In this document: positions 553-42,959 of the stretch, piece by piece
Numbering within the stretch: position 1 is the first letter of the stretch
How the letters are laid out: each line of letters opens with the position of its first letter
NCBI GenBank assembly: GCA_030704615.1
Contig: CM060734.1
Span: 62,930,001 to 62,994,000 of the forward strand
Length of the DNA stretch: 64,000 nt
Source: Takakia lepidozioides
Taxonomy: Eukaryota; Plantae; Bryophyta
Direction: 5' to 3'
The notes under the pieces: generated by a model
Databases searched by the model: none
What the model was told of the DNA's origin: nothing
The model's input: only the letters and a program-made list of their open reading frames with translations
Program-made: the position numbers and the translations under genes

Positions 553-3500
553 TCACCAGTAATCCCCACAAGAACAAATCCCATCTTCAAAGTGGTGAAA
601 GCGGTTAGCGTCCCGTACAACAATTGCTCGGCCAACAATCTTTGAGATGAATTTGGTGGAGGTGTGGCAGTCACCACACACTCGAAGATTCTTGATGAGA
701 CGGAGAGGCGTCCTGGGGTCGTGCTGATCAGCCCAAAACCAATGGCCAGCTTCTCACTGTGGTGGCAAAGAGAAAATTCCTTTTCCTCCTCCCCCACATC
801 ATGCAATACAAAGCGCGTGTCAGGCACATACCCCGCCTTTTTCATCTGCCCAGACAATCTTCTCAGCTCAGCATGGATTTCCTTAATTGGGATGCAACTT
901 GTCAGCTACAACGAAGGTGTGCACCCTGTTGCCAACCTCAATGCAGCAGCGACCTGGCTCCTTTCTAACCCCTTTGACCTTCATCATTCTTCTCACCTTT
1001 GCAGTATCATCCCACCTGCCAGCTGCAGCATAGATGTTTGAGAGCAACACATAAGTCGCGGCATCCTGTTCATCCCACATGAGGATAGATGTTGCTGCAC
1101 GTTCAGCCATCTCACATTGCCATGGATTCTGCAGGCACCAAGCAAGGCCTTCCACACCACAGCATCTGGATTGATGGGCATTTTATTAATCAGGTCCACT
1201 GCCTCATCCAGTTGTCCCGCACGTCCAAGAAGGTCCACCATGCAGCCAAAGTGCTTTACTGTCGGAGTGACACCATGATCTTGACTCAGGGAATCAAAGT
1301 AGCGTCTTCCTTCATTCAGTAGGCCAGCGTGGCTGCATGCAGAGAGAACACATATAAAGGTGATACTGTCCGGCTTCAAGCCGTTCTTTTGCATTCCTTC
1401 AAATAGTTGCACGACCTCCCTATGACAACCATGCTGTGCATATCCTGCGATCATCGCGTTCCACGACACCACATTATGTTCAGCAATATTGTCGAACACT
1501 CCCTTTGCATCCTCGATGCTCCACATTTGGCATACATGTCCACCAGGGCAGTGTTCAGGATCACATCTGGTACAATTCCAGCTCTGACGATGTCGCCATG
1601 CACCTCTTTGCCCTTTTCCAGGGCTGCCAGGCTTGCACACGCACTGCAAACGCACACAAACGTGATGTGGTCGGGCTTCACCCCTTCGCACATCATTTGC
1701 TCATACGTCTCCAAAGCCTCCATCCCGCGCCCCTGCTGTGCATACCCTGCGAGCATCGCACTCCACGACACCACATCTCGTTCAGCCATATTGTCGAACA
1801 CTCCCTTTGCATGCTCGATGCTCCCACATTTGGCATACATGTCCAACAGGGCAGTGTTCAGGATGACATTTGGTTTCCAGCTCTGACGATGTCGCCATGC
1901 ACCTCTTTGCCCTTTTCCAGGGCTGCCAGGCTTGCACACGCATTGCAAACGCACACAAACGTGATGTGGTCGGGCTTCACCCCTTCGCACATCATTTGCT
2001 CATACGTCTCCAAAGCCTCCATCCCGCGCCCCTGCTGTGCATACCTGCAAGCATCGCGTTCCACGACACCACATTTCGTTCAGCAATATTGTCGAACACT
2101 CCCTTTGCATGCTCAATGCTCCCACATTTGGCATACATGTCCACCAGGGTATTGTTCAGGATCACATCTGGTACGATTCCAGCTCTGACGATGTCGCCAT
2201 GCACCTCTTTGCCCTTTTCCAGGGCTGCCAGGCTTGCACATGCACTGCAAACGCACACAAACGTGATGTGGTCGGGCTTCACCCCTTCGCACATCATTTG
2301 CTCATACGTCTCCAAAGCCTCCATCCCGCGCCCCTGCTGTGCATACCCTGCAAGCATCGCGTTCCACGACACCACATCTCGTTCAGCATATTCGAACACT
2401 CCTTTGCATCCTCGATGCTCCCACATTTGGCATACATGTCCACCAGGGTATTGTTCAGGATCACATCTGGTACGATTCCAGCTCTGACGATGTCGCCATG
2501 CACCTCTTTGCCCTTTTCCAGGGCTGCCAGGCTTGCACACGCACTGCAAACGCACACAAACGTGATGTGGTTGGGCTTCACCCCTTCGCACATCATTTGC
2601 TCATACGTCTCCAAAGCCTCCATCCCGCGCCCCTGCTGTGCATACCCTGCGAGCATCGCACTCCACGACACCACATTTCGTTCAGCCATATTGTCGAACA
2701 CTCCCTTGGCATGCTCGATGCTCCCACATTTGGCATACATGTCCACCAGGGCAGTGTTCAGGATAACATTTGGTACAATTCCAGCTCTGACGATGTCGCC
2801 ATGCACCTCTTTGCCCTTTTCCAGGGCTGCCGCTTGCACACGCACTGCAAACGCACACAAACGTGATGTGGTTGGCTTCACCCCTTGCACATCATTTGCT
2901 CATACGTCTCCAAAGCCTCCATCCCGCGCCCCTGCTGTGCATACCTGCAAGCATCGCGTTCCACGACACCACATCTCGTTCAGCCATATTGTCAAACGCT
3001 CCCTTTGCATCCTCGATGCTCCCACATTTGGCATACATGTCCACCAGGGTATTGTTCAGGACCACATCTGGTACGATTCCAGCTCTGACGATGTCGCCAT
3101 GCACCTCTTTGCCCTTTTCCAGGGCTGCCAGGCTTGCACATGCATTGCAAACGCACACAAACGTGATGTGGTCGGGCTTCACCCCTTCCCCCCTCATTTG
3201 ATCATACGTCTCCAAAGCCTCCTCCCGCGCCCCTGTGCATACCCTGCGAGCATCGCACTCCACGACACCACATCTCGTTCAGCCATATTGTCGAACACTC
3301 CCTTTGCATGCTCGATGCTCCCACATTTGGCATACATGTCCACCAGGGCAGTGTTCAGGATGACATTTGGTACAATTCCAGCTCTGACGATGTCGCCATG
3401 CACCTCTTTGCCCTTTTCGAGGGCTGCCAGGCTTGCACACGCACTGCAAACGCGCACAAATGTGATGTGGTTGGGCTTCACCCTTCCCCCATCATTTGCT

Positions 3501-3850
3501 CATAGGTCTCCAAAGCATTCCTACCACACCCATGCTTGGTAAATCCTGCCAACATTATATTCCACGTGATCAAAGATCGTTGAGGCATTCTGTTGAACAC
3601 TTGGTGAGCATCCATGATGCTCCCGCACTTAACATACATGTTGACAAGGGTGTTGAGGAGAAAGACATTTGGCGTGAATCCACTTTGGATAATGTGAGTG
3701 TGCACCTGCTTTCAGCTTCCAGGCCTTCACCTTGATGCACTTATGCAAGAGACAGACATACGTTTCTGAATCTGCTGAAATGCCTCCTTGGTTTAAAGTC
3801 TGTAGAGCCTCTTTCAGTCTGCCTGCCTCACAAAGCATCTTCACATGCCC
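553..3850 (-). CDS. PLS-class pentatricopeptide repeat protein with E1-E2-DYW cytidine deaminase domain (organellar C-to-U RNA editing factor type); frameshifted in this sequence
   Basis: Repeated P ([15 protein letters not shown]..), L ([17 protein letters not shown]..) and S ([16 protein letters not shown]..) motifs. These are followed by P2-L2-S2 ([29 protein letters not shown]), E1 ([16 protein letters not shown]), E2 ([16 protein letters not shown]), a PG box ([10 protein letters not shown]), HSEKLA, CGDCH and the terminus [18 protein letters not shown] (stop 553-555). Many small indels split the ORF. Confidence 0.95.
1440..3500 (-). repeat. About 7 near-identical tandem ~303-bp units, each one P-L-S PPR triplet (101 aa)
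   Basis: The same block (..ccacgacaccacat..gtcgaacactccctttgcat..catttggcatacatgtccaccaggg..) recurs every ~300 bp, at about 1460, 1762, 2061, 2363, 2662, 2961 and 3260. Confidence 0.95.
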
Positions 3851-3959
3851 AGAAGTGCCAGAAGAGGCATTGTGGACTCCCTCTCTTGATCCTCTTCCAA
3901 GCTGTGGTCATGGTTGAGGTGCCTGATTTTATCAACTGTGCCACTGCAGCTGCTGCCTT

Positions 3960-5985
3960 TAGTTGACCATCTACCCATGCAGGTTTCTTGTAGCTATTGA
4001 TCCACAGAAAATCATAGGTAATCTTGTTCTTGAAATCTGGCCCTCTTGGATGAATCTGTACCACTCGACCCTGCTCCTTCAGCTATCCATGCCTCTGCAC
4101 AACTCATGCATTCATCTGCTAACAGCTGACAATGACAGCCTAGGTTTGTTCTAGGAAACACCCAACTCAGCTTATCACACTAGTTCCTATGCTCATTGCG
4201 TCTGCTACTCTCTGTAATCCAACAGGCATCAACCTTTTTGCCTCGATTGTCCCACCATGACTGGGGTCAGAAAAGTATTCTTTCCACAGCTTCTCCTCGT
4301 CTCTGTTACCTGTTTCTGGATACTTTCCTGTTGTCACATTGGCAGTATCATGTCAAAGTCACTCCAAACTATCAAAGGGTCACTCAACCAGCTAACTTGC
4401 AGAATTCAACATGAAAATTTAGGGCCGGCTCTGATAAGAGGGAAAAACAGGGTGAAATGTGTTGAAGAAGGTGCCTTCATTAGCAGTGCCTGATTTTCAA
4501 TTGTGCCTGCTGCTGCAGCTTCCAGTTGACCATCTACCCATGCAGGTTTCTTGTAGCTATTGATCCACAGGGAATCATAGGTAATCTTGTGCTTGAAATC
4601 TGGCCCTCTTGGATGAATCTGGACCCACACTCCACTCCTGCTCTTCAGCTATCCATGCCTCTGCACAAATCATGCATACATCCTTGCCTTGCTGCTAGCA
4701 GCTGACAATGACAGCCTAGGTTTGTTCTAGGAAACACCCCAACTCAGCTTATCACACTAGTTCCTATGCTCATTGCGTCTGCTACTCTCTGTAATCCAAC
4801 AGGCATCAACCTTTCTCCATCGATTGTCCCACCATTGACTGGGGTCAGAAAAGTATTCTTTCCACAGCTTCTCCTCGTCTCTGTTACCTGTTTCTGGATA
4901 CTTTCCTGTTGTCACATTGCCAGTATCATGTCAAAGTCACTCCAAACTATCAAAGGGTCACTCAACCAGCTAACTTGCAGAATTCAACATGAAAATTTAG
5001 GGCCGGTTCTGATAAGAGGAAAAAAGGGTGAAATGTGTTGAAGAAGGTTCCTTCATTAGCAGTGCCTGATGTTATCAATTGTGCCGCTGCTGCGGCGACG
5101 GCTTCCAGTTGACCATCTACCCATGCAGGTTTCTTGTAGCTATTGATCCACAGGGAATCATAGGTAATCTTGTGCTTGAAATCTAGCCCTCTTGGATGAA
5201 TCTGGACCCACACTCCATCCCTGCTACTTCAGCTATCCATGCCTCTGACAAATCGTGCATACATCCTTGCCTTGCTGCTAGCAACAGACAATGACAGCCT
5301 AGAATTCTTCCAGCAAACACCCAAACCATTATCACACTAGTTCCTATGCTGACTTGCACCTGCTTCCAACAGGCATTCACCTTTTGGTCTCCATTGTCCC
5401 ACCATTGACTGTCGTCGGAGAAGTGTTCATTCCAAAGCTTCTCCTCGTCTCCGTTAGCTGTTTTTGGATACTTTCCTGGTGCCACGTCGGCACTAACTTG
5501 TCAAATTCATTCCAAACCACCACAGATCCACTGCAACATATGGCAAATGAAAGGCTACAACTTGGATGCAGACACCATATTCAATATCGAAATTCAGAGC
5601 CGAATCTGATGAGAGCGAAAAACAGGCTGAAATAGGTCGAAGAAGAAGGTGCCCTCACCACATTGTCCTTGACCTTGTGTCATGACCCATGGAGGATTTG
5701 ACCGACCATCGACCCAAAAGGACCTCTTGTGTGTGCTGCTTGTGTCTGTAGTCAGGTAATCTCGGATTGGTCTGTGAGAACCACCACGGTGCAGATGAGC
5801 AGGCAGAGACCTGCTAAGACCAAGCTGACTCTCCCAAGAACCTTGTAAACAGCCAAGAGCCCACATTTGCAGGAGGGACAAACTTCTTCACATCGTACAT
5901 TGAGAAAAAGCCACACCTTGCGATTTCGGTTCTCCCACCATCGTGAAGGATCTTTAAAAAACTCATGCCAGCTCTGCTCCGTGCT
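3960..5985 (-). other. Four intron-split OSB-type PDF motifs (one PDY variant plus three in ~570-bp tandem duplications) upstream of and contiguous with the PPR ORF
   Basis: After removing GT..AG introns the motifs read EQSWHEFFKDPSRWWENRNRK|TNPRLPDYRHK..FWVDGRSNPPWV and EEKLW(N/K)E(H/Y)FSDxSQWWDNxxxK|IHPRG(P/L)DFK(H/N)KITYDxLWINSYKKPAWVDGQL. These match the W..F..P..WWDNR..K....PDFKHK...LW pattern of plant organellar ssDNA-binding (OSB) PDF motifs. Confidence 0.8.
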
Positions 5986-6239
5986 CCAAGGTAGAGGTTT
6001 GTGCTCGAAAATCCGACAGCATCAACATGTTGACAAGGTCCTTTACCGAGGGGTGCTAGTGAGCTTTCAACGACATTCATGCAAGTTGTTTTGGGCTCCA
6101 TTGGGCTCTACACGATGAGGAACAACGAACTACAAACTCTGCTCAAGAAACGTGTGCTTTTACGTGTTCGACCTTGGTCTATTTCGTCACTCTTGAGGAT
6201 ACTTATGAAGCTCCCAACTAAAACACTACTTTTGATCTA

Positions 6240-13748: not shown

Positions 13749-15744
13749 TATGTGACACGCGGAATTGGGTGGTACACCTTCCAATACCGTGCATTTATAC
13801 ATCCTAGACATTAAGTATGTGGCCATATCAGCTTCGCACACATCCCGAACCGGATCCGAGCCTCCAACATCCATTTGGATTTTGGTATGGAGGAGGTTCG
13901 GGAACTCTGCACATGGCTCATGACTCATCTGCTCATGGCTCATGAAAAAACAACCCCCCTGCTCAGTAATTCCCCCCCCCAACCTTTTTTCTTTTTGTTT
14001 TGTTTCGTCATCTCTTCCTCTCTCTTCCTGTCTCTCTCTCACTTTTGATGTGATATACAAGTTATGGACAACTCTCGACATCTTTCCCTTGATCCCACAT
14101 GACAAGACAGACCATAGACCATCTCCCCACCCTGACCTACCTCTGTTGTTGCGGCTCCTGCTGCTGCTGGTGCTTCAAGCGAGCTGTTGCGGTGCTGTCG
14201 CGGCTGCCAACGGCGCGGGTCCCCGCCGCTGCAAGGCGTCTCTCCCCCGTTCACCACGGCTCTCTCTCTCTTCAGCTCGTTTAGATCGCGCCTCTGCGCG
14301 GCATTTCTACCACACTAGGGAGAGAGAGATCAGCCCGTGCCTAGGGCAAGAAAGCAAGAGAGAAAGTGAGGGAGGAGGCAGTGCTTACCTTGGGCGTTGG
14401 AGAGGCATAGGGGCAAACTCCTTGGGGCCTTGTGACCACCTCGGGCTCAGCAGCAGGTGTGTTTCTCCTCCACCCTAAACCCCACTATCTTAACTACCTC
14501 TCTCCCAAAGAACAAATGAAAACGGGAGGGGAAGGAGGTGCTTCAAGCACTTAGGGGGAAAAAAAAAACGCGGCGCCTACGTGCGACACCCAACCGTCGC
14601 ACGCCTGCACCCCGCTTTTAAAAAAAAATGTATAAATGGTATTCTCGACGGCGGGCCGTCGCTGCTTGCGACCCCCGGCCCTATAAATAAATAAATAACG
14701 TCGACTCCCGCGACGGCTTTCCGTCGCGGGGTGCGACTCCTGGCTAAAAATTTGAGAAAAAATGCGTTGCCAAATGATACGTGAGGGTGTCGCAGGAGGC
14801 GACGGCCGGCCTTTCTGGGTGTAGGGTTAGGGCTTTTTGGGGTTCTTAGTTTTTATTTTTATTTTGTTTTTTTCATATGGTACTGGGTTAGGGTGTTTGC
14901 TTTTCTTTATGGTGCTGGGTTTTGGATTGGCGGTTTTGGTTGTGGGTCTTGGGGTTGAAAAGATAAACGGTGTAATTAGGATTCACATACCCAAAATGTG
15001 GTTCAATCTGATAAGCGCAAAACGCTGGGTCTCAATAAATTTTTCCATGGTGTGGGCATCCTGAAGATAGAACGTGAGGAAGGATTTATTGTCTTGGGCT
15101 CTCTAGCACCATAGGGATGATCCGCCTTTGGTTACCAATTTTGAAAGCCCCGAGGCTGAGGCATAGGGTTTTTTTGCCAACGGTTTTTGAGAAATGAAAG
15201 TGCTGGTGGTGTGTGTTAATTAAGATGCGATGGTGAAGAAACATCGACCCGTCTCCCTCGAGGATGGGGAGGTAGTACCACATATTGATTATGGCCCTAT
15301 AGCAACCGTTTTTCGTGGCGAGGAGCCACCCATTGCACCTGATCCAATACAGACTGCCGGGCAAATCGTAGAAGGGACCGGGGCCAAATCTCAGGTGATG
15401 CGGAGGATGTTGACACTCCGGGATCGAGTCGAGCGCGCCACGGGTTGCCCCCTCGCGGGCCACCACGTCCAACCACGTCCACCTTTGACCCGCCCGACAG
15501 GATTGAGTGTTGGTGCACTAAGTGTTGGGAACGGATACCGCCGGGCGGCACCAGACCACCAAGGCGGCGAGCGCGTGTTGTCGAAAAACATTACAAGAAG
15601 AACAGGATTGCGGATGTGGCAAAGGTGAGTGTTTTTCCCACCCCTCTCATTAACATTCATTTAAGATACATTTTCCCACCCCTTTCGTCTCAGGAAGCGG
15701 CGGAACGGGGTTTATCTAATAATATAGTATGATTGGTAAGCATA

Positions 15745-16274
15745 TGTCGTGCGCATACATATCGCTACACAACTACATCGCTGTCCAAACCACACCACAC
15801 ATATATGCACAATAAAGTAGTCTGCCACAATGATAAACAAGCTAAAAAAGGACACACACTCCCAACACAAGAAATATAAAATCCATCGCTATCACTCATT
15901 GAAACTGAAGTCGAGCCAGGGGCACCCCAAGCTATGGGGACTCCACCCCACAACAACCTGTACCCCTACATAAGCACACTCAAACCTAAACACATGCAGG
16001 AGCTCGGTCGCGCAGGCTCAACTCGATAAAGATGAGCCGCGCGACTGCCGCTCTCGTGAAGATAAGACGGACCAGGTGTCAAACTAAACTTGACACCTGA
16101 TTTAACACTTGACCTAAATCCAAGTGTTAAATACAAATAACTAGTTCTATTCTAGCTGTTTTCACACTGTGCTTATTTAACTTGACAGCTGTCGTGCGCA
16201 TACATATTGCTACACAACTACATCGCTGTCCAAACCACACCACACATATATGCACAATAAAGTAGTCTGCCACA
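15745..16274 (-). repeat. 3' terminal structure: full LTR (16274-15831, TG..CA, directly after the PPT) plus an extra copy of its first 85 bp (15829-15745)
   Basis: Segment A (85 bp) lies at 15745-15829 and 16190-16274 (1 mismatch). Segment B (357 bp) lies at 15831-16187. The B/A junction is GACA-GC-TGTC at 16184-16193. The minus-strand polypurine tract AGGGGGGCGA is at 16276-16285. Confidence 0.9.
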
Positions 16275-16534
16275 ATCGCCCCCCTAGCTGGTGGATAGGT
16301 CCCTCTACCTCCAGATAGCTACAAGATGTAATAGCCACAGCCGTACTAAGTCCTCTATCACTGTCCCTATTGTACTCAAACTCTATAGACCAAGAGGCCG
16401 GGTACAAGAGTAGCCCCATCGTTAGTCGCCATCTTGCAATCTGTGAACTTGAGCCAGGACCTCGTGTGTTCAAGGTCTCCTAGTAGCTGGGCCTTGCGTT
16501 TCTTGTTAGTCTTCCATGGTTGTATCCACTCCCA

Positions 16535-16690
16535 CTATCCAATGCAATGTGGACATAACCAATCCCCATCCGGAACCATCTCAAGAGGTGGAGTCAAGCA
16601 TCCCATATGCCAACCTCTAGAGCATCGATCGCACACCAGCATGGTGGCTGCCCCTTTAGCAGACCCACACAACATGCACCTCAAACCTGC
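16535..16690 (-). CDS. PHD finger at the C-terminus of the retrotransposon integrase
   Basis: CMLCGSAKGAATMLVCDRCSRGWHMGCLTPPLEMVPDGDWLCPHC is a C4-H-C3 PHD pattern with the typical P..W.CP end. Confidence 0.92.
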   Translation of the reverse strand, partial: AGLRCMLCGSAKGAATMLVCDRCSRGWHMGCLTPPLEMVPDGDWLCPHCIG

Positions 16691-16824
16691 AGATACCACT
16701 ACCAGGTTTGGGTCAATCCTGCCATCACATTCGGAAGGTGACATGGCGCACAATTACGCACATGGTCCTTCCAAGTTATGCCATCCCGACCCTCCAAGAC
16801 CAAGACGCCTGAGGGCAAGACCTC

Positions 16825-17900
16825 TCAAACCCTCAAAATAACACGTCCTGCAGTCACATCCAGGGTCGTAGGAGCAGTCTGCTGCAGATAGACATAGTCA
16901 CCAGGGTTGAATCTCCGAACCCCAGGACGATAGCCCCCACCACGTATGGTAGCATACCTCAACGTATCACGGTGTTGTGCAATGGCAAGGTTCTCGAAAG
17001 CCATGGGCATGACTCTCTTGAACAACTCTGCACGCTGCTCACATGCACGTGCCCACACGTCCGGATCGTCAAGGTTAAGAACTGTAGCAGCTTCTCTGCG
17101 AATGGATGTAGGCAAATCCGGCTCTCGGCCAAAGAGAAGAAAGTATGGTGAGAAGGAGGCAAGTGATGCTTGCTTGCTGAACCTGTAGCCCATGGCTAAC
17201 CAGGGTAACTGAAGGTCCCAATCTCCTAGGTGTCCCTTCTGCAAGCCATACTTGCGCAAACCCCTCTTTACCGTCTGAACAACTCTCTTTGCCAAGCCAT
17301 CGGCTTCAGGATGATCCCGAGAAGTGGTGCGGTGGTCTATCAAGGCCTTGTCACACAAAGCCTGAAACTCCCCCAAGAACTCTCTCCCTTGGTCCGTGAG
17401 TACCTCAGCTGGAGCACCGAATCGGCTAAGCACACAATCCAGGAATGCATACGCAGCTCCCTCACTAGCCTTATCAGGCAATGGAACCAATTCAATCCAC
17501 TTGGAGAAGTGCTCCACCATCACCAACACGTACTTGTTGTGGCGCATGGTCAGTGGCAACGGCCCTGCGAAGTCAAGACTCCACCTGTAGCCCAATCCCA
17601 TGATCGGAAGAGGGTGCAATTGTGGAGTAGGGGCGTTGAATGAAGCACGCACCCTGTCACACACCATGCACCTAGCCACAAATTGTTGCACCTCTGTGTG
17701 CATACCACGCCACCAATACTGCCCCTGCAGTAGACTATGAGTGCGTCGCACCCCAAAATGCCCCAACTCCTCATGGGCATGCCGCACTAACCGTGCCCGC
17801 TGTGTTGGGTGAGGCACAATCCTCACTCGACCATCCTCCCACACTCGGAGCAGGTGTGTCCCCTCCCACCTGAACCTCTTGGCTCGTTGTAGGATCCGAT
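16825..17900 (-). CDS. Retroviral-type integrase (HHCC + DDE core)
   Basis: HEELGHFG..CMVC zinc-binding motif, WSLDFAGP, VLTDQGREF and HPEADGLAKR (the third catalytic E reads K in this copy, codon 17288-17290), then RRFNPGDYVYL. Confidence 0.93.
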
Positions 17901-18152
17901 CCCTCTCCTTGGCAGTCATAGTGGCTGTCCGTGTCTCCACTGCGGAGGTAGTCCAACACAACTGAATCCTCATGTATATCTTTGGCGCCACCCTGCTCAT
18001 TGCTGGCCTCAGGGTCCTCAGACACTTGATCTACAGTCATCCCTGTTGTAGGTCCAACCTGGCCTTCCGCTGCCAAGATACACAAAAATGCAGATGCATG
18101 CCATCCGGGCACCATCTCCTCGTCCGTCTCACCATGCCACCGAGCTCCAGTG

Positions 18153-19511
18153 TCATCCTGCTGGCTCGTGCATGGATTGCGACTCAACCCATCTGCATCT
18201 GCATTGACCAAACCCGGTCGATGCACACACCTGAAAGTCATACTCTTGAAGGATGAGTGCCCACCGTGCAAGCTTCCCCGTAAGCTTGTCTGACTCCATC
18301 AACCACTTGAGTGGTTGGTGATCCGTGACAAGGGTGAAGAGATTGCCGTATAGATAGCACCTGAAGTGTGCCACGGCCCACACTGCAGCTAAGCATTCTC
18401 CCTCATATGAGCTATACTTAGACTCTGCAGCATTGTTCGAGCGGCTAGCATAAGCCACTACGAACTCTCTTCCCTCATCATCCACCTGTGTGAGCACCGC
18501 TCCAAGCCCCAGCATGCTCCAATCTGTATGCAGCTGAAAAGGACGCCCCCTGATAGGTCGTCTCAAGATGGGCGCCGAGGTCAACCTCGCCTTGAGCTCT
18601 TGAAAAGCTTGTTCTTGCTCATCTTCCCACTGCCACTCCTGGTCCACCTTGGTCAGCTTGGTTAGAGCCTTTGCAATGGCACTAAATCCCTTAACAAACC
18701 GTCTGTAATAGTTTGCTAACTCCATGAAGGCTCGAACTCGGCTCACATCCGTGGGGCGTGGAACCTGTGCAATGGACTCTACCTTAGTCTGCTGTACCCC
18801 CAATCCTCCAGGATATATCATGTGACCCAGATACTCAATCTGGTTGTGGAAAAACTTGCACTTGCCCGGATGTAACTTCAATCCGTGCGTCCTCAAGCGC
18901 TCAAATACCCCTTGAAGGTGTCTCTCATGCTCCTCCACCGTAGCACTAAAGATGATGATGTCATCTATGTAGCACCGAGCAAACTCCACCCCTGCTAGAA
19001 TCCTGTCCATGACTCTTTGAAACTCAGCGGGAGCGTTTTTAAGCCCAAATGGTAAGAACCGCCACTGGTATAGGCAATCCTTCCCGTGCTCATTGATCCC
19101 CCAGAATGCCGTCTTTTGCTTATCCGCCTCCTTGATCGGCAACTGGTGATATCCGGATCGTAAATCCAACGTGCTAAAGACCTTGGAATGCCCAATGGCA
19201 TCAAAGATCTCCTCTGGTGTTGGCATGGCATACCTATCGGACTTGGTCTGACGATTTACAGGCCGGTAATCACCGCACATACGTCTCTCCGTCCAATTGC
19301 CATAGACATCCTTCTTAGCTGGCATCACTGTGGCTGAAGCATACTCTCCACCAGAGAGCTCCACCAAACCTACCTCCCAGAGATCTTGAGTCCTTATCTG
19401 AATCAAAGACCTCTCCATGTCACTGTATCTATAGGGTCTCCGAAAGATTGGCGTGTCAGTGGCCAACTCAATACGGATCTCTTGACCCTTCAGTGCTCCC
19501 AAGTCCTTCAA
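18153..19511 (-). CDS. Reverse transcriptase and RNase H (gypsy pol)
   Basis: RMCGDYRPVN, FSTLDLRSGYHQL, LPFGLKNAP, CYIDDIII, LHTDWSMLGLGAVL, YEGECLAAVWAV, TDHQPLKWL. Confidence 0.97.
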   Translation of the reverse strand: MKDLGALKGQEIRIELATDTPIFRRPYRYSDMERSLIQIRTQDLWEVGLVELSGGEYASATVMPAKKDVYGNWTERRMCGDYRPVNRQTKSDRYAMPTPEEIFDAIGHSKVFSTLDLRSGYHQLPIKEADKQKTAFWGINEHGKDCLYQWRFLPFGLKNAPAEFQRVMDRILAGVEFARCYIDDIIIFSATVEEHERHLQGVFERLRTHGLKLHPGKCKFFHNQIEYLGHMIYPGGLGVQQTKVESIAQVPRPTDVSRVRAFMELANYYRRFVKGFSAIAKALTKLTKVDQEWQWEDEQEQAFQELKARLTSAPILRRPIRGRPFQLHTDWSMLGLGAVLTQVDDEGREFVVAYASRSNNAAESKYSSYEGECLAAVWAVAHFRCYLYGNLFTLVTDHQPLKWLMESDKLTGKLARWALILQEYDFQVCASTGFGQCRCRWVESQSMHEPAG

Positions 19512-19959
19512 ACTGAAGGCAAAGCAATTCCTGTAAGCCCTCAGGAACCGCCGTATACGTCGTCTCTCTCTCCTCCGGTGACAGTGGGTCCAATGTCAGG
19601 CTCCCAATTGTCCTCCGTAACTGCAACCTTAAGTCCAGTGGGCTTAGAGGTAGAGGACGCGTCCCGTGGTTGTTACGCTGCAACCTCTTGAGCAGTACCC
19701 CCTTCCTGCTCAGTCAATGACAAGGCCTCATCCTGCCCCATCATCTCATCATTGAGAACCTCCTCATCCCGAGAAGAATCCCCAACCTCATCCATCACAG
19801 CTGCCTTCGCTGCCAACTCCCTCTGAACCTCGAGCACCTCCCACGTGTGCCATGGATGTCTACACCTCGTGGTCCTCACCGGCTCGCCTCCACTCGCTGC
19901 CTGTACCGTCTCAGTAGGCAGAGAGACCGTCAAGGGAAGTGCACTCCGCACTCTACGTT

Positions 19960-20925
19960 GCTCAGCCATAGCCAAGCTGACAATCCAGGTCAAGCAATTG
20001 AGATCCATTGCTTGCCCCAACACCTGACGACGTGATGCCTCAGAAAGAGAAGGCACCGCCGTGGTCCCAGTGGAAAACCCCATAGCCCGCTCTCGCTCGT
20101 CGGCATTAGGCTCCACTAACTGCTGCAACTGAGCATCCCACAGGAGGCCAGGTCCACCATCCCGAAAAGCATGGGATCCTGGGAAGCTGAGCAGTGTAGG
20201 TAATGCTGCTCGTGGTTGACCCACCCTGTTGACCACTGCCAAAGGCGAACGGTCATCGTGTCTCACACGTTGAGACTGCCTTCCTGTGTCCAAAATGCCA
20301 TCCACGGTGAGGTGTGCTGGCCGCTGCACCCCATCAAATGCACGCTTGAGCAGTGCGGGTGGGATCAAGTTAGTCCACCATAGTCGTGGACGATGAGCCC
20401 GTGACCCCACTGCAGCTGCATCCAGCAATACTGCTGACCCAAGCCACAACCGGACTTGATGCACACTGGCCATCACCTTGGCCCGAGAATCACCCATCAG
20501 TGGTACATTCTCCAAGATGTATGCTGGAGATACAGCTTGATGAAGCTGCAAGCAGCGCAAAATCCGCACCATCTCCCAAAACAGACCCGTCCTCGAGTCT
20601 CGCAATCCATTGCCATGCCCAGCTGATGAATGCCCTTGGCAGGGCCAACCTGCCACTATCAGATCAATGGAGCCAACCTGCTCCAAATCTTGCGCCCCCA
20701 ACAAGGAAATGTCTGCTGGCAAGGCTTGTTGGTATCCACGAACTGCAGACACAGGCAACAAGTCAGGGTACTGCTGTACCAACTGAGCCACATGGCGCAG
20801 TGAGACGCGTCGTGGCAGTCTCATCCCTCTCCACATACAGGTAACGCCTTACCCCACACCTGCCTGTAGCACAGCAGCCAATCCGGTGCTGATCCCGCCA
20901 AACAAGTCCAGAAGGCAAATGCCTT
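19960..20925 (-). CDS. C5 cytosine DNA methyltransferase domain (DNMT3-like) embedded in pol between protease and RT
   Basis: Motif I LLDLFGGISTG, II YLYVERD (across frameshifts near 20850 and 20810), IV DLIVAGWPCQGHS, V GLRDSRTGLF, VI YILENV, VIII RAHRPRLWWTNL, IX ERERAMGF and X RRQVLGQAMD, in the canonical order. Confidence 0.92.
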
Positions 20926-21339
20926 CATCCGGCCGCTGCCACACAAGAGGTGTGGTGTCCAATGGTGACAACTGGGGTGGCCCTGGTGCAATCACCGCAC
21001 TCTCCTCCTCTTCTGACGATACAAAAGCTTCTACCCAAGCTTGTTGCACCCGTCCATCAGCAGCTTGCTGCAAATCCTTGCTCGTACCCCACAACGGAGT
21101 GTGAGCAACCATGGCAGGCAACTCCGCCGTACCATGCATGTCATCCTGCTCTGCTGGAGGTGGCACATCCTCTGCATGGGCATTGCCTTCCAGCAACTCT
21201 CCAGGCCAACTAACTGCAACTGTGAAGGCGGCCCCCCCGCTGGGCAGCTGCAATGAATATCACAGGGAGCTGTGCACGGCGACCATCCCCGACTGCCATC
21301 CAGGCCTGTAGGATGCTGACTCCTCCCAGAAATCCAGGG

Positions 21340-21700
21340 TGAAGCCCATGGGGTATAACACTGCCCACCAACGAGGACATCGTAAGAGACCGCGTCTGTA
21401 ACAATGGCCTTGGCTCGCATCAATGAGCCATCTACAGGATGATCCGGCTGCAGTCTAATAGCCAACTGATGCCGTGTCATGCCGCGAGCCTGCTCTGATC
21501 CTCCCAGAGATGTCTGTATCTGGAAAGGACAAGGCTCCATATCCGCCTCCATGAGGCCCAAACCTGCAATAGCAGCTCTGCCCAACATCAGTGGCTGAGC
21601 TCCCGAGTCCAACAAGACCCGCAGTGGCCGGTACTTCTTGCCTGCCGGTCCACTCAAAGTGAAAATGCCTCCCTGGTTGTCTAACAAGACAACTCTAGGT
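21340..21700 (-). CDS. Retropepsin-like aspartic protease
   Basis: RVLLDSGAQPLMLG active-site motif and downstream YDVLVG. Confidence 0.85.
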
Positions 21701-21923
21701 GTCACCATGGCGCGCTCAAAGGCTGGCCTAGCTGGCAGCTCCGTCAACCTGGCAGCTGCAGCTTGCCAGGGCGCAGCCGTGGCAGTCTTGTCCCTCAAAT
21801 CCGAGGATCCCTCTGCCACTACACCTTCCACTAACTCCGCAGAAGATGAAATGACCTCCCCACTCTCACAGAGTGTTGCTGCTAGTCTGAACACTGCAGC
21901 TGGCCTTACCCCCGGCGTCGCAA

Positions 21924-23987
21924 TCATTGTTGCCGAGAACAGTGGGCCTGACACACAGAGGTGGCTGCCCCCAATAACACATCGGCCGCACTAGCCTTGG
22001 CAGCAGGAGTCAATGCTGCACGTGTAGCTCTCCCCAATGGCATAGTAACCTCCGCCTCGGTAACAGTCGGGCGAGAACTAGGTGCCATGGATGGCGTCGA
22101 TACAGTCTCCGCCAATGTGAATGACTGAGGAAGCCTCGCCTGACGGCTTGCCTCCCCACGCTGTGGATCCAATTCCACCTCTGCACCTCGTGGCTCAGGA
22201 ACTCGTGCTGCTCCTCGAGTCACGGCTGCAGCAGACTCCACCTGCTCTAGTGGTAGTGCTGCTCCGCACATAAATCCCATGCCTCCCATATCTCCTCCCT
22301 CAGGAGCAAGAGGTGGACCATCCCGCCTGGGAGCCGGTACCGCCTGAGCTATAGCCATGGCAGCGAGCCTCTGCTCTAGCTGCTGAAGCCGGTTGGCCAT
22401 GCCTTGATCAACATCCTGACCTCCGCGTCCTTGGCCATGTTGAGCTTGCCCTTGGCCTGCATCTCGTGCCCGACCACCTCGTCCTCTCTGGGCTGGTCCA
22501 CCTCGCCCCCGGCCACCATTGTTCCCTTGGAACTGGCCTGGGCGCAACTCAGGATGCAAGTCATAACACTGGGCATCTACATGCCCATACTTGCCACAAT
22601 GCCCACACTGCAACTGTGCAGGCTGTGCTTGTGCCGGCCTTCTGCCATTCTCTGGGCAATCTCTTTTGACATGGGGTCCTCCACATGTCCAACATATCAC
22701 CCCTGGTTGCTGTTGGCCTGCAAAAGATGCCACGGGCCTCTGCACCTGAGGTCCCCTGTGAGCTCCATGGAACTTGGGCTGGGCAACCTTGCCCCCCTGA
22801 CCACGCTGTTGGGCAGTCCCTTGTGCTTGTGGGCTGACAGCTGTGCCCCGTACAGGCATGTCCTTGCCAAATCCAATTGTAACAACTCGCTCCTCCACCA
22901 TGTTGAGCTCAATCCGCTCAGCCAGCAGAAACACATCTGCTAATGTGGGTTGGGCTGCTTGTAACAGGGTTGCATCTCGCACCCTTCTCTTGAGCTCCTT
23001 GTCCAGAATTCCATACCAAAACTGGATTGCCTGAGCTTCAGTAACCCCTTGGGTCACACTTATCAAGCGCCTCATACGAGTGTACGCCTCTCGCAGGCTC
23101 TCACTGGGTTTGCACTGGAAGTCTTGCAAACTTCGCAGCTTCTCTGTCCGTACACCTTGGTAGTTCCTCCGCAACTCCTGCAACTCCTGGAAGAACTCCA
23201 CCACCGGGTTGAATCTAGGCACATGTGTTGTAGTTGTGGCAGGAGGAGTAGGAGCACCTTTTGAATTGGTACCACCTGCAGAAGTACCAGCACTACCTGC
23301 TCCACATATCCCAGCCCAAAACCCCGGACTGACTGGCCTCCACCAAGAGAGGCTTTGGCAACTACAAGTACAAGGTAATGAAAATAGTACAGAGATGGAG
23401 GGGAAGAATAGAAGCCCGCCCAAGCAAGATCTAATCCTGATCTATGCTATCAACTTCCAGACTTCTCTCAAAGTGCCTCGCTCTGCTTGATGGTAAGGTG
23501 TAGGAGGTATATCTATGTCCAGAAACCTGCCACTAACCTTGTCCCAAGCTACAGTAGCTCGCTCTAACCAACCCTCCTCCTCTTTCTGCCAGGTAGAGAC
23601 AAAGCAATACTCTGCTATCTCCCGCTCACTGAACAGTAAAGAAAACAAAGGTAGGGTCTGATAGTCTCTCAACTCGAAAGCTTTGAGACGGTTGCGGGTG
23701 TCCTCATTGCGAATGACTGCATCTCCTTCACGCACAACAAACATGTCATTGCTGATGAACCCCCGCTCGTGGTTGCCCTGTGCAGAGCGTATCCGGCTGC
23801 AACCATGTCTGATTGCACAAACTTGTGTAGCTCCTGCTCCTCTGCTCCAGTACGCCACGGCCTTGTGGCTGAACACCTTGGTCCCCGGGGCTGTCTTTGG
23901 CTGTGTTCCAAGCCTAGCTTTCACCCACTTTGGTATTTCACCTACAGCTGCAGAACTGTTGGCTCCAACAGAATTCTGACTGTCCAA
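21924..23987 (-). CDS. Gag (capsid-like region plus two CCHC zinc knuckles), probably including the upstream 181-aa ORF
   Basis: FQCKPSESLREAYTRMRRL is retrotrans_gag-like. Knuckles are CWTCGGPHVKRDC and CGHCGKYGHVDAQC, followed by an RGG-rich tail. ORF 23442-23987 is collinear just upstream. Confidence 0.8.
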
Positions 23988-26298
23988 GGCGATATTGAGG
24001 CCCTCAATGCCAACTACAGCAGTCTGTTATCTACTGCTAATGCCTGACTCCCAGTATGCAATCAACTCGTCCAACTGTTCTCCACTCAAATCAGTCTGAG
24101 TTCCTTGGGAAACATAAATCTTGTCCCCTTTGGTGCACAGGCTAAGAGAAGAGACCTGCCCTTCAACGACGTCCTCATTTCCCCCAGCCATACAAGGAGT
24201 ACATCCACAGATTTGTCTCTAATATAGACCAGCACAGGTTCTAGAAACAGGATTGTGGATCTTTCATGGCACACTCACACTCTAAAAATTCCATAGATTT
24301 TTAGCAGAGTCCCAAAAACAGAAACCAGGTCTAGATAGGTAGATTTCCCTTTTCTGTAGCTATCCCCTCAAAAACTGAGTCAAACGGAGCTCATTTGACA
24401 AAGATATGACCAACCAGGCTCTTTATCATTTAAATTAGATCAAAGTTTTTTTTTTTTTTTAACACCAAAACGTTCCCGCCATTAAGAACCGTTCCCAGGT
24501 TTCATTTGTGGTTACGGGTGCACCACAGGCTCGCTCTCTTAGTGAGCTGCTTTGCTCCAGCGACGACTCTCGAGCTCGGGTGTATGGTTGTGGCGATGGC
24601 GATGGCCTGTGTGCAGCGTCAGGCATATGTTTCCCGTGATGCAAGCACTCGAGCCATCCCTAATGCAGGGACAAGCCCTGATGATACTCTGTCAGAACCT
24701 GGTGGGCAGCTGCCATCTGCACTTGCTCTCTCTTCAGACAATCTTCGGACCTAGTGTCAAATGTGGAAGTGGTGAAGGATCTTATTGACAAAGGCAACTG
24801 TGTTGGACTATCCGCAGAGTAGAGAGTAACCAGATCAGCTTCGTCATTTAGTTGAAGCTTGGAGCATAGGTCTGCATACTCCGATAGGGCAAAGGCACTA
24901 TCTCAATTCAGGTAGCGATCATGTTCAATGTAGAAGCATACCCGCTAGCGGTATACTGATCCACCGCAACATCCCCGTTGGACTTGTCTGCAATGTTCCC
25001 TGCAGCTTTGCAAGCTCGTGTACCGAGTGTCTGGCCAAGTTGGGCAGCAACAGCATTCAGACTGGCCACAAACTTCAAGGTTGGATAACCACTCACTCCA
25101 TATCTCGGTCACAGGTCTCCTCTGTCTTTGAGCTATGTTGGGTGGACTTGCTGGAGGGAAAGGTTGCTGGTCATTCCAACTGACACCAAGCATTTCAGTT
25201 CAGCCTTCTACCCGGCCGGCGCTACCACTGCCGTTGCTGTCCTACCAGCCAATGTCCCCGACCCCGTGCTTGCGACCCTACGCCACCACGCTACCTCCCT
25301 GCAGCTCCAACACATGGTTAGAATCCCAGTTCTTCACATACGCCGCCATCCTCCGAATTCAGATGAATACCAGCATACTGGCTCGCCCATTGCACATATT
25401 GCGTCTTCCACCGAAGATAGAATAATTATTGATGAATGTGAGTATCAATCGTTTTCCCTGTCTCTTGGCTTCAGCTACCACAAAGCCGAGTGCATCCCTT
25501 CTATTTCACCATGTCTGCTATAGCGTGGAGCAAGAGCTTGAGCGTGGAGCTTGTAGAGCGGGAAAGCTTGAGCTGAGCAGATGAGGCATTTCCTCACTTC
25601 CTTGGTCATAACTGTCATATAATGAACACTGCATTGGCTGTGTTGAAGAAGCTTAATCCATGCAGCTTCAAAAGCACTCAGATAGATAATCCGCTGATTG
25701 TGTTGAATAGTTTCAACACTGTAAGCGGGCTTTTCGCATCGTTACTCTTCATCGATTCTTTCGAGATAACCCGTGGTGCGGAGCACGATGCTATGCCATG
25801 GCTGCCAGGGCTCCCTTTCCCGTACACTCTTCACTGCTCCTCACCTTCTTTCTATAAATCGCTTCTCTGTCTATGTTGCTTTAACAAGGTCTGGATTTGT
25901 CACCATTGGACTGACCAAGTACAGCAAAGGCTGTAGAGCAATCTGCCTCTCGCGGTGCTCCTGTACAGTTGCAGTTATAGCGACGCACCGAGTGCCCAAC
26001 TTGTAACAACTATTCAACCGCAAGCGTTTGTTCCCTTGTCACAACCACACTCTTGCATGCATGCTGCATACAGTCTTCCACCTCCGGAGAAGAAGTCCAG
26101 GGACAGAGTTACGGTTGTCAGCAGCTACCAACAAACATAGTCTTCCTTACATTTGCGCATCATCCTGCTGCTCCACCAGCCTTGTCACAAACATAATCTA
26201 CCGTAATTTTCTTCTCTCGCTTCTAAAACAAAAACCACAAGTGCTTAAAACTAAACTCACCTCTGGCACTCACAGATGCAAGCCTCATCTTTCTCGAG

Positions 26299-26655
26299 TG
26301 ATAAACAAGCTAAAAAAGGACACACACTCCCAACACAAGAAATATAAAATCCATCGCTATCACTCATTGAAACTGAAGTCGAGCCAGGGGCACCCCAAGC
26401 TATGGGGACTCCACCCCACAACAACCTGTACCCCTACATAAGCACACTCAAACCTAAACACATGCAGGAGCTCGGTCGCGCAGGCTCAACTCGAGAAAGA
26501 TGAGCCGCGCGACTGCCGCTCTCGTGAAGATAAGACGGACCAGGTGTCAAACTAAACTTGACACCTGATTTAACACTTGACCTAAATCCAAGTGTTAAAT
26601 ACAAATAACTAGTTCTATTCTAGCTGTTTTCACACTGTGCTTATTTAACTTGACA
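26299..26655 (-). repeat. 5' LTR (segment B only, lacking the 85-bp A segment)
   Basis: Matches 15831-16187 except for one base. On the minus strand it begins TGTCAAG and ends TTTATCA. Confidence 0.92.
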
Positions 26656-27146
26656 CATACATGAATCCAAATTACGACATAAGTATTGATGCGTCGTTCA
26701 CTACGCATATTGCAGCCACGACTTGATGCCCAAGCTCGCAATCACATTGCACAGGAGGCATTTCGCGTCGGTCTACTTGCAGAATTTGTGCCAGAGCATG
26801 TGCCCGATGTGACTAGTTGGTTCCTTAGCAACACCTAGATGAGATGCATAGGATCGAGGGGTATCGTAGTGTCATAGGCACTATGGCCGGTGACGAGCAG
26901 GCCCACCCCCCCCCCCCCCCCTCCAGTTTCCTCAGGCGGTCCCCCTGATCCAGTGTCCTCATCTGATGATTCTCCGCACCGTACATGTAGTAGTAGTTTG
27001 CAGACCGATTGTGCCCCCCCCCCCCCCTCGGTCTGTTTCTTTGCATGTTCCACCTCCGGTAGTACCTGATCCGGATGTTGTACCCCCGGCTGCACCTCCG
27101 GCATTACATCCTCAACCACCTCCACTTTCATCTCCTCCGCCAGCAG

Positions 27147-36200: not shown

Positions 36201-36589
36201 AACATCGATTCAAATACAACGTGACTTAATGTTCAGAGGTCCGTTCCATAATCTAATTTGGTGCTGCTACAAAAATGCACAAAGCTGCAAAGTCTAAGTA
36301 GACTTCAAAATGCCTGAGTAGAAGATGCATACACTGGCTTGGCCGGATTTGTCAACCACCTTCAAGTGCCATCCAGCCCGAAAACGGCAGAAGATACATA
36401 AACAAGCTTTCAGGCAATATCATAGCAACAACAACATTGATATATGTGAAACAAACTAACATCGCTAAGAATATGTCTAAGCACCATTACACAAACTCGA
36501 TGTGTGCAAAATGGAAAATTGTAGGTAGGGAACCCATACCCCATTCTGGCAGTCAAGGATTGGAGTTTGGGAGTTGTCTTGCTGGCAGG

Positions 36590-38260
36590 TAGCGCGGTGG
36601 CTGCAAGCATCACACTCCACGACACCACATCTCATTTAGCCATAGTGTTGAACACTCCCTTTTCATCCTCGATGCACCCACATTTGGCATACATGTCCAC
36701 CAGGGCAGTGTTCAGAATGACATCTGGTAATTGACAGGCATACATTTTTTTGCCTCGATTGTCCCACCATTAACTGGGGTCAGAAAAGTATTCATTCCAC
36801 AGCTTCTCCTCATCTTTGATACCTGTTTTTGGATACTTTCATGTTGTCACATTGGCAGTATCATGTCAAAGTCACTCCAAACTAGATTCACTCAACCAGA
36901 TAACTTGCAGAATTCAACATGGAATTTAGGGCCGATTCTGATAAGAGGGAAAAACAGGGTCTCATGTGTTGAAGAAGGTGCCTTCATTAGCAGTGCCTGA
37001 TTTTATCAATTGTGCCGCTGCTGCTGCAGCTTCCAGTTGACCATCTACCCATGCAGGTTTCTTGTAGCTATCATTCCATAGGGAATCATAGGTAATCTGG
37101 AGCTTGAAATCCGGGCCTCTTGGATGAATCTGCACCCACACTCTATCCCTGCTCCTTCAGTCATGCCCACGAGAGTATTGTTCAAAATCACATCTGGTAC
37201 AATTCCAGCTTTGGTGATGCAACCATGCACCTCTTTGCATGTGCTAATGTTTCCAGCTTCCAGACCTTTCATCTTGATGCACTTAAGCAAGAGACAGACA
37301 TACGTATCTGAATCTGCTGAAATGCCTCGTTGGTTTAAAGTCTGTAGAGCCTCTGTCAGTCTGCCTGCCTCACAAAGCATCTTCACACTCTATCCCTGCT
37401 CCTTCAGCTATACAGGCCTCTGCACAAATCATGCACACATCCTTGCCTTGCTGCTAGCAGCTGACAATGACAGCCTCGAATTGTTCTAGCAAACACCCCA
37501 ACCCTACCGACTTAGAGGCTATAGTGTCCAAAGCCATGTCTGTTTCCAGAAAATTGTCTGATGAAATTGAAGTTAGGCAGAAAACTTCCTTGGACTTGTT
37601 TCCAGTCTGTGACATGGGAGAGGACATCATGGATGACCTCAAGGGTCTACCCACTCTTGACACCAAACTGAAATTTAAACTCAGGGCAGGAATCCTACCT
37701 TTGAATAGCAAACAGAAGCAGAGAGGAAAGGGAGAATGCAATTGCACCCAACTCAACTAATCACACTAGTTCCTATGGTCAATTGCATCTGCTACTCTCT
37801 GTAATCTGACATGCATTCACCTTTTTGCCTCGGTTGTCCCACCATTTACTGGGGTCAGAAGAGTATTCATCCCACAACTTCTCCTCATATCTGTTACCTG
37901 TTTTTGGATACTTTCATGTTGTCACATTGGCAGTATCATGTCAAAGTCACTCCAAACAAGATTCACTCAACCAGCTAACTTGCACAATTCAACATGGAAA
38001 TTTAGGGCTAATTCTGATAAGAAGGAAAAACAGGGTGAAATATGTTGAAGAAGGTGCCTTCGTTAGCAGTGCCTGATTTTATCCATTGTGCCGCTGCGGC
38101 GGCGGCTTCCAGTTGACCATCTATTTCTTGTAGCTATCCTCCACAGGGAATCATAGGTAATCTGGAGCTTGAAATCCGGGCCTCTTGGATAAATCTGGAC
38201 CCACAATCTATCCCTGCACTCCTTCAGCTATCCATGCCTGTGTACAAATCGTGAATACAT
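36590..38260 (-). pseudogene. Rearranged paralog of the PDF-PPR gene (PPR fragments and two PDF units)
   Basis: PPR S/P fragment at 36590-36730. PDF units at 36740-37135 and 37760-38230 closely resemble 4200-5200. [32 protein letters not shown] (37270-37386) is nearly identical to the PPR start at 3740-3844. Confidence 0.85.
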
Positions 38261-41929: not shown

Positions 41930-42600
41930 AGTAATTTGGTATCCCACATCCACTGCCCGCGGTCTTTGAGGATAATCTGATGCCCTAGGTCAGCAGCACC
42001 CCAATCATTCCAAGTGATTTGGTGTCGCACAACAACTGCCCCACAGTCTTTCAATGAAATCTGATGTTCCACATCAGAGGCTCCACAATCCCTCAAAGTG
42101 GTTTGTTGCCCAGCATCTACGGCCCCACAGTCCTTCAAGGTACTCTTCTCCTTATCTGGAGGTTTCAGGTTACCACAAGAGTATCCACTACAAGGGCTAC
42201 CACACTCACGGCTACACTCGGTCCAGCTTCCATATTTCCCACTTCTGCCTCATGCTTGATTCGCAACCGGCATTCATGTTTCCAGTGTCCCTCTTTCTTG
42301 CAGTAGTGGCATCTCGTGATTTCTTTGTTTCTGGGTTGATGTTCTCTATCCCATGGTGGATAGTCATCTCGTGGCCTCTGATAACGATTACCCATATTGT
42401 ATCGTCTTGGTCCATCCGATCCTCCCCCTCGGATTTGGACTTGGTGTACCCCCACCTCTCGTGTGTACCCACTCTTCTTGGCCCGTTGATTGTAAATACA
42501 ATGGCTGGTATTATGATTGTTCATATGACAAATATCACAGCAAGGCCCCATTTCATACCACATATTCCAATGCCCCAATTTCCAGTACCCAAAATGACGC
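41930..42600 (-). mobile_element. LTR-retrotransposon gag remnant with zinc knuckles followed by 45-bp (15-aa) tandem repeats
   Basis: CDICHMNNHNTSHC and CHYCKKEGHWKHECR knuckles, then about 5 LKDCGAxDxxHQIx-type repeats at 41930-42140. Confidence 0.6.
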
Positions 42601-42959
42601 GCCCTCTTCAAGGATGGGAAGTCGGAGCTTGCATCATCGATCTGAGACAACGACACAAGCAGAAATGCGAGGATGAAACTCACAAGCTGCGTTGATATAC
42701 TGCTATGGTGAGCCGGGCGGCCTGGAATAAGAGTCTCGACTATGGTCATGAGTGCTTGGTCCTTAGCAAGCTCTTCGGAGGCAGTATGGCCACCATCTGC
42801 AGCCATAGCTACAATCGCCTGCCATGGAAGAGCATCCCCATTCACCTCTAGCATGCATAAATAATTCATGTATGCCCTGATCATTGGATATGCCTTTGAT
42901 CTCTCCAGTAATTCTCCCTTCTCTCTTTCAGGGTGTAGTTCCTCCTGTTCCCGACATTG

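Follow-up and report, generated by a model that had tools for sequence, protein, structure and literature searches.

A Ty3/Gypsy retrotransposon of Takakia lepidozioides with a DNMT3-like methyltransferase at the end of its first reading frame

The stretch of Takakia lepidozioides DNA that we analyzed (64,000 nucleotides, hereafter the window; assembly GCA_030704615.1, contig CM060734.1, positions 62,930,001 to 62,994,000) contains on its minus strand a complete Ty3/Gypsy element of 10.9 kb (15745-26655), which is bounded by a 4-bp target duplication, ends its coding region with a PHD finger and carries a DNMT3-like cytosine-5 methyltransferase (MTase). It is a recent, broken copy of a green-plant family, the intact members of which, on balance, likely package this MTase and methylate their own new DNA. 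Enzyme-carrying elements are a known kind; the new parts are the spread in land plants, the placement of the enzyme in ORF1 behind a likely leaky stop, the probable self-priming, and the permuted ends with a candidate inner attachment site.

Layout of the element and class of its methyltransferase

All features of the element are given on the minus strand, except the leader segment and the inner joint of the repeats, which are given without strand. The element opens with the repeat A1 (26299-26655, 357 nt, TG...CA), in which the promoter, R and U5 would lie, followed by a leader that includes an extra segment of about 1.7 kb (24480-26220, borders approximate). Then comes gag (21945-23441) with two zinc knuckles (22656-22694 and 22566-22607), which matches Pfam weakly (Retrotrans_gag, E 0.037) and is 48-60% identical to liverwort-type ORF1 proteins, and an aspartic protease (21345-21660), whose Pfam match is also weak (Asp_protease_2, E 0.052) and which shares 54-57% identity with the protease regions of homologs. 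The MTase (19960-20925) is followed, past an in-frame stop, by reverse transcriptase (RT) and RNase H (18228-19523; RVT_1 E 8.5e-33, RT_RNaseH E 2.2e-36), a DDE integrase with an H2C2 zinc domain (16726-17919; Integrase_H2C2 E 1.1e-16, rve E 1.4e-14) and, at the integrase C-terminus, the PHD finger (16544-16678; PHD E 4.2e-12). This order of protease, RT, RNase H and DDE integrase is that of Ty3/Gypsy according to Pfam, and no Pfam match to a tyrosine recombinase was obtained in any of the nine ORF pieces of the element, an rve integrase being present instead. The element is Gypsy by its enzymes and atypical by its ends.

Pfam recognized the MTase as DNA_methylase (PF00145) with an E-value of 2.7e-13 (50.5 bits for a cut-off of 22). 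Its motifs, in the numbering used for C5-MTases, run in linear order: I, LDLFGGISTG (20882-20911); II, RYLYVE (20829-20846); IV, DLIVAGWPCQG (20633-20665); VI, ILENV (20504-20518); VIII, HRPRLW (20378-20395); IX, ERERAMGF (20075-20098); and X, RQVLGQAM (20006-20029), with no DRM-type permutation. The original prediction, made from the letters of the DNA, had placed C5-MTase motifs between the protease and RT and had called the domain DNMT3-like rather than MET1/CMT and not DRM-permuted; its position between the protease LDSG (21601-21612) and the RT YIDD (18960-18971), its order and its class were all borne out. The class of the domain (the METHYLTRANSFERASE question) was judged by a PDB sequence search, a family profile and a Foldseek search with the structure model of a homolog. 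With the window domain as query, the first 25 of 34 PDB matches were DNMT3A/B/C and the remaining 9 were HhaI-type. The family profile (43 sequences) gave 87 bits for DNMT3A, 37-44 for DRM and 30-34 for HaeIII/HhaI, and none of its 46 PDB matches was a DNMT1 or CMT chain. The model, built on the intact homolog P0002 (73% identical) and not on the broken window domain, reached a pLDDT of 90.6, and 32 of 32 among the Foldseek matches listed were DNMT3 (best E 6.6e-20). Judged by its closest solved relatives and its linear order, the domain is best described as DNMT3-like.

Among the 70 homologs with full coverage (out of 188), the catalytic Cys is kept in 67 and the Glu and Asn each in 69, while the Arg of motif VIII is kept in 67-69, down to about 35-40% identity. 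It could be argued that the MTase is kept for a non-catalytic role, for example that it binds or protects the nucleic acid inside the particle. This would agree with the Glu that replaces the Pro ahead of the catalytic Cys in 12 of the 70 homologs, and with KnitGypsy-Dnmt3 of the alga Klebsormidium nitens, which did not methylate DNA in yeast, a result called inconclusive by its authors in the main text (PMC5890265). It would agree as well with the composition of the element, where CpG observed/expected is 0.52 against 0.54-0.58 in the flanks and where no CpG or CHG depletion beyond that of the flanks, as a footprint of self-methylation, was found. Nevertheless, the retention of the catalytic residues and the reported activity on CG of the Symbiodinium DIRS-Dnmt3 domains (main text of PMC5890265) argue for a working enzyme and make a non-catalytic role improbable.

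Outside the element, the window holds degenerate PPR-repeat arrays (1400-5990, 36500-38250 and 42960-43480; periods of about 300 nt and 580 nt), with a PPR_2 E-value of 4.7e-18 for 1451-1999. It also holds a gag-like ORF of a different retroelement, which encodes a zinc knuckle (42165-42974, minus strand), and an ORF fragment (54787-55404, plus strand) with a Cas12f1-like TNB zinc-ribbon match below the cut-off (E 3e-4), possibly a TnpB/Fanzor remnant. A weak DUF4216 match (45051-45542, plus strand) and a pair of 80-nt inverted repeats (14834-14913 and 45830-45909, 30.9 kb apart) may be what is left of a CACTA-type DNA transposon on either side of the Gypsy insertion.

Spread and selection of the family, and state of the window copy

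Searches for homologs gave 163, 68 and 49 proteins, with Marchantia, Calypogeia, Riccia, Sphagnum, Closterium, Chromochloris, Hariotina and Haematococcus as named hosts. Among the named relatives, those of liverworts and mosses are the nearest; ferns, lycophytes and seed plants do not occur among the named homologs, for which the masking of transposable elements in annotations may account. The family profile matched 618 clusters at E 1e-30 or better, the best 150 of which were examined. One family member, P0038, comes from a 2.4-kb contig and is deposited as a DNA methyltransferase in a MAG of cyanobacterial type; it is probably plant or algal DNA in the bin.

Two architectures are found, with the MTase either ahead of RT, as in the window element, or between RNase H and integrase. 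The latter was seen in 85 of 135 new representatives, and the chlorophyte matches belong here. Proteins P0158-P0218 and P0283-P0415, which include those of Haematococcus, Hariotina and Chromochloris, have this second architecture (RT-RH-MTase-IN-PHD). Trees of RT-RH and of the MTase (34 rows) both split the two architectures, with a patristic rank correlation of 0.63 that was obtained without an outgroup and on non-independent pairs. In a quick MTase tree search, limited to element domains, with long-branch warnings and 8 rows removed by the length filter, the window MTase fell into a 14-row clade with liverwort and moss proteins (SH-aLRT 99).

Selection was estimated as dN/dS between the window and related loci from metagenome contigs (80 loci, L001-L080, several of which are the same insertion in different assemblies); 60 of them were used and 20 divergent or rearranged ones were excluded. 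By domain, the ratios were 0.12 in gag (24 loci), 0.12 in the MTase (58), 0.08 in RT (43), 0.05 in RNase H (36) and 0.07 in integrase (23), at a dS of about 2-3, which is at or close to saturation. These sequence comparisons indicate that the MTase domain is under purifying selection across the family. Within the related loci, dN/dS was 0.59 for the MTase and 0.35-0.64 for the other domains; these values are not counted as support because the decay of dead copies shapes them. The two motif VIII Arg codons in L001-L080 are CGN and often altered by C-to-T transitions, as expected for heavily methylated dead copies.

In the host's runs, the summed contig depth was 0.71-1.18 million for the MTase and 1.09 million for RT, figures that describe co-occurrence and not copy number. 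That the window copy alone picked up a fragment of a host DNMT3, a reading for which the other host-like fragments that this copy seems to hold in its leader might have spoken, is refuted by the same position of the MTase in relatives from several plant lineages, by the purifying selection and by the equal depth of MTase and RT. The original prediction had itself named absence of the domain from other copies, neutral dN/dS and loss of the catalytic Cys or ENV as findings against it; what we found was a domain present in relatives and at RT-like depth, a low dN/dS and catalytic residues that are kept nearly throughout.

The same prediction had called the element young, which holds for the insertion and not for its coding region: the two A copies differ at 1 in 357 nt and the two B copies at 1 in 87 (2 in 444 repeat bases in total), whereas the coding region has about nine breaks. 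Taken with the extra leader segment, this disparity means that the copy was probably defective before inserting. It would quite likely have been derived from an already defective template and moved in trans. Within the MTase there is a stop at 20849-20851, and the frame is left briefly over motif II, until about 20814. At these breaks, other copies in the same organism differ from the window in most of their contig depth, so that the lesions belong to the lineage of the window copy. The leader segment (24480-26220) has a summed depth of 1,000-2,400, against 0.2-1.35 million elsewhere in the element, and is not shared by most of the family. None of its nine pieces has a Pfam match, peptides near 24950-25108 resemble a protein disulfide isomerase and a family 1 glycosidase, and contigs of run X7 match short pieces of it and then diverge, as host-gene fragments would. 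It is possible that this segment is a capture of gene fragments by a non-autonomous subfamily.

Published cases of retrotransposon-borne DNMTs concern dinoflagellates and algae, and a tractable host for them has been lacking. KnitGypsy-Dnmt3 is described in the main text of that paper as a Gypsy element with a Dnmt3-related domain, a repeat structure as in a DIRS retrotransposon and purifying selection (de Mendoza et al., 2018). It shares with the window element the Gypsy domain set, the unpermuted Dnmt3-like domain, the purifying selection and the split direct repeats. It differs in that its DNMT is stated to lie in the same ORF as RT/RNase H, where the window lineage has a conserved stop in between; in that the PHD finger, self-priming, length of the target duplication and inner palindrome of the window element are not mentioned in the main text; and in its few copies in K. 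nitens (PMC5890265), whereas the window family is abundant and has a land-plant host. No named K. nitens protein occurred among the homologs returned by our protein searches. The window element, compared with KnitGypsy-Dnmt3 by description, is best taken as a probable relative of it and is not classed as a member of that group. SymbioDIRS-Dnmt3 and SymbioLINE-Dnmt are also retroelements with a cytosine MTase, and SymbioDIRS has A-coding-B-A-B repeats, but they use a tyrosine recombinase or LINE machinery according to the main text (PMC5890265); the sole Symbiodinium match in our homolog searches was 29% identical. The EpiLTRs likewise carry cytosine MTases, but their DNMTs are described as close to DNMT4 and are accompanied by a Dam methylase and a chromodomain (bioRxiv 10.64898/2026.05.21.726589). 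Later papers speak only of "streptophytes". The original prediction had supposed that no land-plant clade was recognized, and our searches, which covered open-access text, yielded neither such a Gypsy-DNMT3 clade of land plants nor an account of the likely leaky stop or of the end mechanism; supplementary figures (13-14 of PMC5890265 and 2D of the 2026 preprint) may include land-plant members or the PHD finger.

The conserved stop codon behind the methyltransferase

On one point the original prediction has to be corrected. The MTase had been placed inside pol, but it lies outside the RT frame and ends the Gag-protease frame, which closes at a stop at 19673-19675. The homologous codon is a stop in 54 of the 55 loci aligned across the site (39 TAG, 15 TAA), and over the surrounding 140 nt no other codon shows more than one stop in these 55 loci. 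In runs X1, X5, X8 and X9, from a second organism, the third base differs and the codon is still a stop among the matches listed. Seven Marchantia proteins end 74 aa past the MTase match, two proteins of the Calypogeia cluster end 76 aa past it, and those of an unnamed sister clade close about 70-130 aa past it. The stop is followed by CAA CCC in 50 of the 55 loci, one base off the plant-virus readthrough consensus CAR-YYA (as given in PMC2194720), which the window element matches in full with CAA CCA.

Taken together, these features suggest that the MTase is likely made at the level of Gag, and Pol by readthrough. An in-frame stop that sets the ratio of products is described for MuLV, SIRE1 and Tca2 (PMC2194720). 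In contrast to these, the stop of the window element comes after protease and MTase, which puts the enzyme on the abundant side, and no pseudoknot-like signal was found: RNA structures 3' of the stop had z-scores from +0.4 to -2.6, with only 1 of 7 folds below -2. As to Tca2, the same source indicates that its in-frame gag-pol stop need not depend on local signals for readthrough. This precedent can also be turned around, in favor of a Pol that is made by splicing, from an internal promoter or by re-initiation. Related loci have an in-frame ATG two codons past the stop, which would allow re-initiation, and in four Marchantia gene models, as in several distant proteins, the MTase is continuous with RT. 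Nevertheless, the frame is open on both sides of the stop, the window copy has no in-frame Met between the stop and the RT core, its host lineage being without a Met past the stop, and the CAA codon right after the stop is kept in both lineages. The fused Marchantia models have shortened linkers, which would fit predicted introns. A route to Pol other than readthrough thus seems unlikely to us. Whichever way Pol is made, distant relatives have MTase and RT fused in one ORF, or the MTase after RNase H, so that a dosage of MTase at the level of Gag is not needed across the clade.

Ends of the element, probable self-priming and proposed life cycle

The single terminal LTR pair that is usual for Gypsy, with a polypurine tract before the 3' LTR, is absent. 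Past the coding region, the polypurine tract (16276-16285) abuts not A2 but the repeat B1 (16190-16276, 87 nt, CA end), which is followed by GC, by A2 (15831-16187; 356/357 nt the same as A1) and by B2 (15745-15831; 86/87 nt the same as B1), the 3' end of the element. The flanking 4-mers (26656-26659 at the 5' side, 15741-15744 at the 3' side) are the same, and a 5-mer fails to match. Related loci share this A-coding-B-A-B order despite different sequences and lengths of A and B, and have the same purine run ahead of B1. In 7 loci (6 sites), B1 leads on to A, and two nucleotides separate them each time. All 7 elements with both ends, window included (6 distinct sites), have a 4-bp target duplication; the first TG/TGTC has one changed base in two of these seven. 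The inner B1/A2 joint forms a 10-bp palindrome, CA-GC-TG at its core (16184-16193), which reads GACA-GC-TGTC in the window, L002 and L006 and has transition-type variants in most others. At the A2/B2 boundary, a putative end-to-end cDNA joint, the two repeats meet cleanly in 6 of 7 cases, including the window, and are separated by an insertion in L054. PAT, Ngaro and VIPER have the same order of repeats (A1-B1-A2-B2), but are described as encoding a tyrosine recombinase (PMC4157794, PMC9210276), whereas the window element encodes an integrase of the DDE type, has TG...CA at its ends and is flanked by a duplication of 4 bp. We had also considered A-coding-B forms as integrations of 1-LTR circles; this was dropped, as L043 (B only) and L049 (B-A-B) share a 93-nt 3' flank at 95%, and recombination of B with B or a collapse of the assembly explains these forms.

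Directly after A1, a non-tRNA PBS (26284-26299) pairs with a stretch inside A1 (26489-26504), the predicted 5' end of the transcript, as a 16-nt perfect complement, the best of 2000 shuffles being 10 nt; the fold has a z-score of -7.1. In related loci, at least 10 of 12 positions pair in 9 of 13 anchored cases (15 tried), and 5 of the 12 pairs are altered on both sides between the loci and the window, in compensation. This stretch starts 31 nt after TATAAA in undeleted related copies. No TGG follows A1, and a tRNA primer is unlikely. Very probably, the RNA would start inside A and prime itself on the PBS in the manner of Tf1. Self-priming of this kind, with no tRNA primer, is described for the Tf1/Sushi and Tcn1 chromoviruses, which also have a chromatin reader at the integrase C-terminus; the window element differs from them by a PHD finger in place of the chromodomain, by its split repeats and by its MTase (PMC6317226).

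The ends would be consistent with a permuted LTR that is cut internally by integrase, the inner palindrome being the candidate attachment site, and the integrase of foamy viruses is reported to cleave palindromic LTR-LTR joints (PMC1180852). In the course of events that we slightly favor, the cDNA would have its left end set by the polypurine tract and its right end by the PBS, and would carry B-gc-A at both; these ends would be joined, and integrase would cut the inner palindrome, so that an insert with the permuted order A-coding-B-gc-A-B and a CA at each of its two ends results. A symmetric cut of such a circle also predicts the mirror form A-B-A-coding-B, of which none was seen in 18 cases, no A1 start having B upstream. 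Some asymmetry is therefore needed, with one favored cut site, unless the ends are rebuilt by template jumps. Extra jumps of RT onto the inner B/A joint, as proposed for DIRS-type elements, would rebuild the split repeats into a linear cDNA with A and B ends, with no cut of a circle; they account for the sole order A-coding-B-A-B, and the inner joint would serve as the template for the two ends and for a GC dinucleotide that allows normal 3' processing. On the other hand, the purine tract before B1 leads one to expect plus-strand DNA that begins at B, not A, and the clean A2/B2 boundary in 6 of 7 cases fits a join of ends defined by the PBS and the polypurine tract. Such jumps are possible, with a probability that we place somewhat behind that of the circle. 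The ends also raise the older question whether an integrase-cut joint of the LTR-LTR type can be a normal route of integration.

As to the proteins, ORF1 would give Gag-PR-MTase and leaky termination a longer RT-RH-IN-PHD protein, so that the MTase would probably be as abundant as the capsid protein. There is about an even chance that this MTase would methylate CG sites of the cDNA by the time it inserts, either beforehand or during the event, and that the new copy would thus arrive resembling host chromatin. The PHD finger has CHD4, PHF12, KDM5A/B (PHD1) and ATXR5 as best PDB matches, and also PHF21A, UHRF1 and AIRE. The PHD-type readers of CHD4, KDM5 (PHD1), ATXR5, PHF21A, UHRF1 and AIRE bind the unmodified H3 tail. 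As the finger of the window element occupies the place at the integrase C-terminus where chromoviruses have the chromodomain, it may, with a little less than even probability, steer the integrase to chromatin with unmodified H3K4. A PHD finger is also described in the Gypsy polyprotein of a green alga, Gypsy-7a_cRei of Chlamydomonas, where the MTase is not among the listed domains and the LTR pair is near normal (PMC9940879).

The contact with chromatin that a PHD finger suggests may also be read as a sign that the MTase acts in the nucleus, on the integration site, older copies or host DNA and not on packaged cDNA, with self-silencing that keeps the damage to the host in check. Enzymes of the DNMT3 type methylate chromatin de novo (PpDNMT3b, as described in PMC6453930), and de Mendoza et al. 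raise host benefit and effects on insertion sites in their main text (PMC5890265). The link of the MTase to Gag and protease speaks for the particle, and in relatives the MTase lies between RNase H and integrase; either position puts it with the cDNA. A nuclear target seems rather unlikely to us in comparison with the packaged cDNA.

The most complete picture would be that of a green-plant-wide Gypsy lineage, abundant in early land plants, which provides its own primer, uses a leaky stop to produce an active DNMT3 at the stoichiometry of the capsid, methylates its cDNA inside the particle, closes the ends into a circle, cuts a palindrome in its LTR and is steered by a PHD finger; that all of this holds at once is doubtful. 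LTR finders that need a terminal LTR pair (as in the methods of PMC6317226) likely miss or clip such elements, whose ORF1 appears in annotations under the name of host methyltransferase genes. Full-length Gag-PR-MTase frames are present in Marchantia polymorpha, a genetic model with methylation mutants, so that self-methylation of the cDNA is directly testable. If the complete picture is true, this family would be an LTR retrotransposon with a pre-methylated, end-joined circle as a productive intermediate, and bryophyte genomes would have in it a large, hidden supply of genes for de novo methyltransferases.
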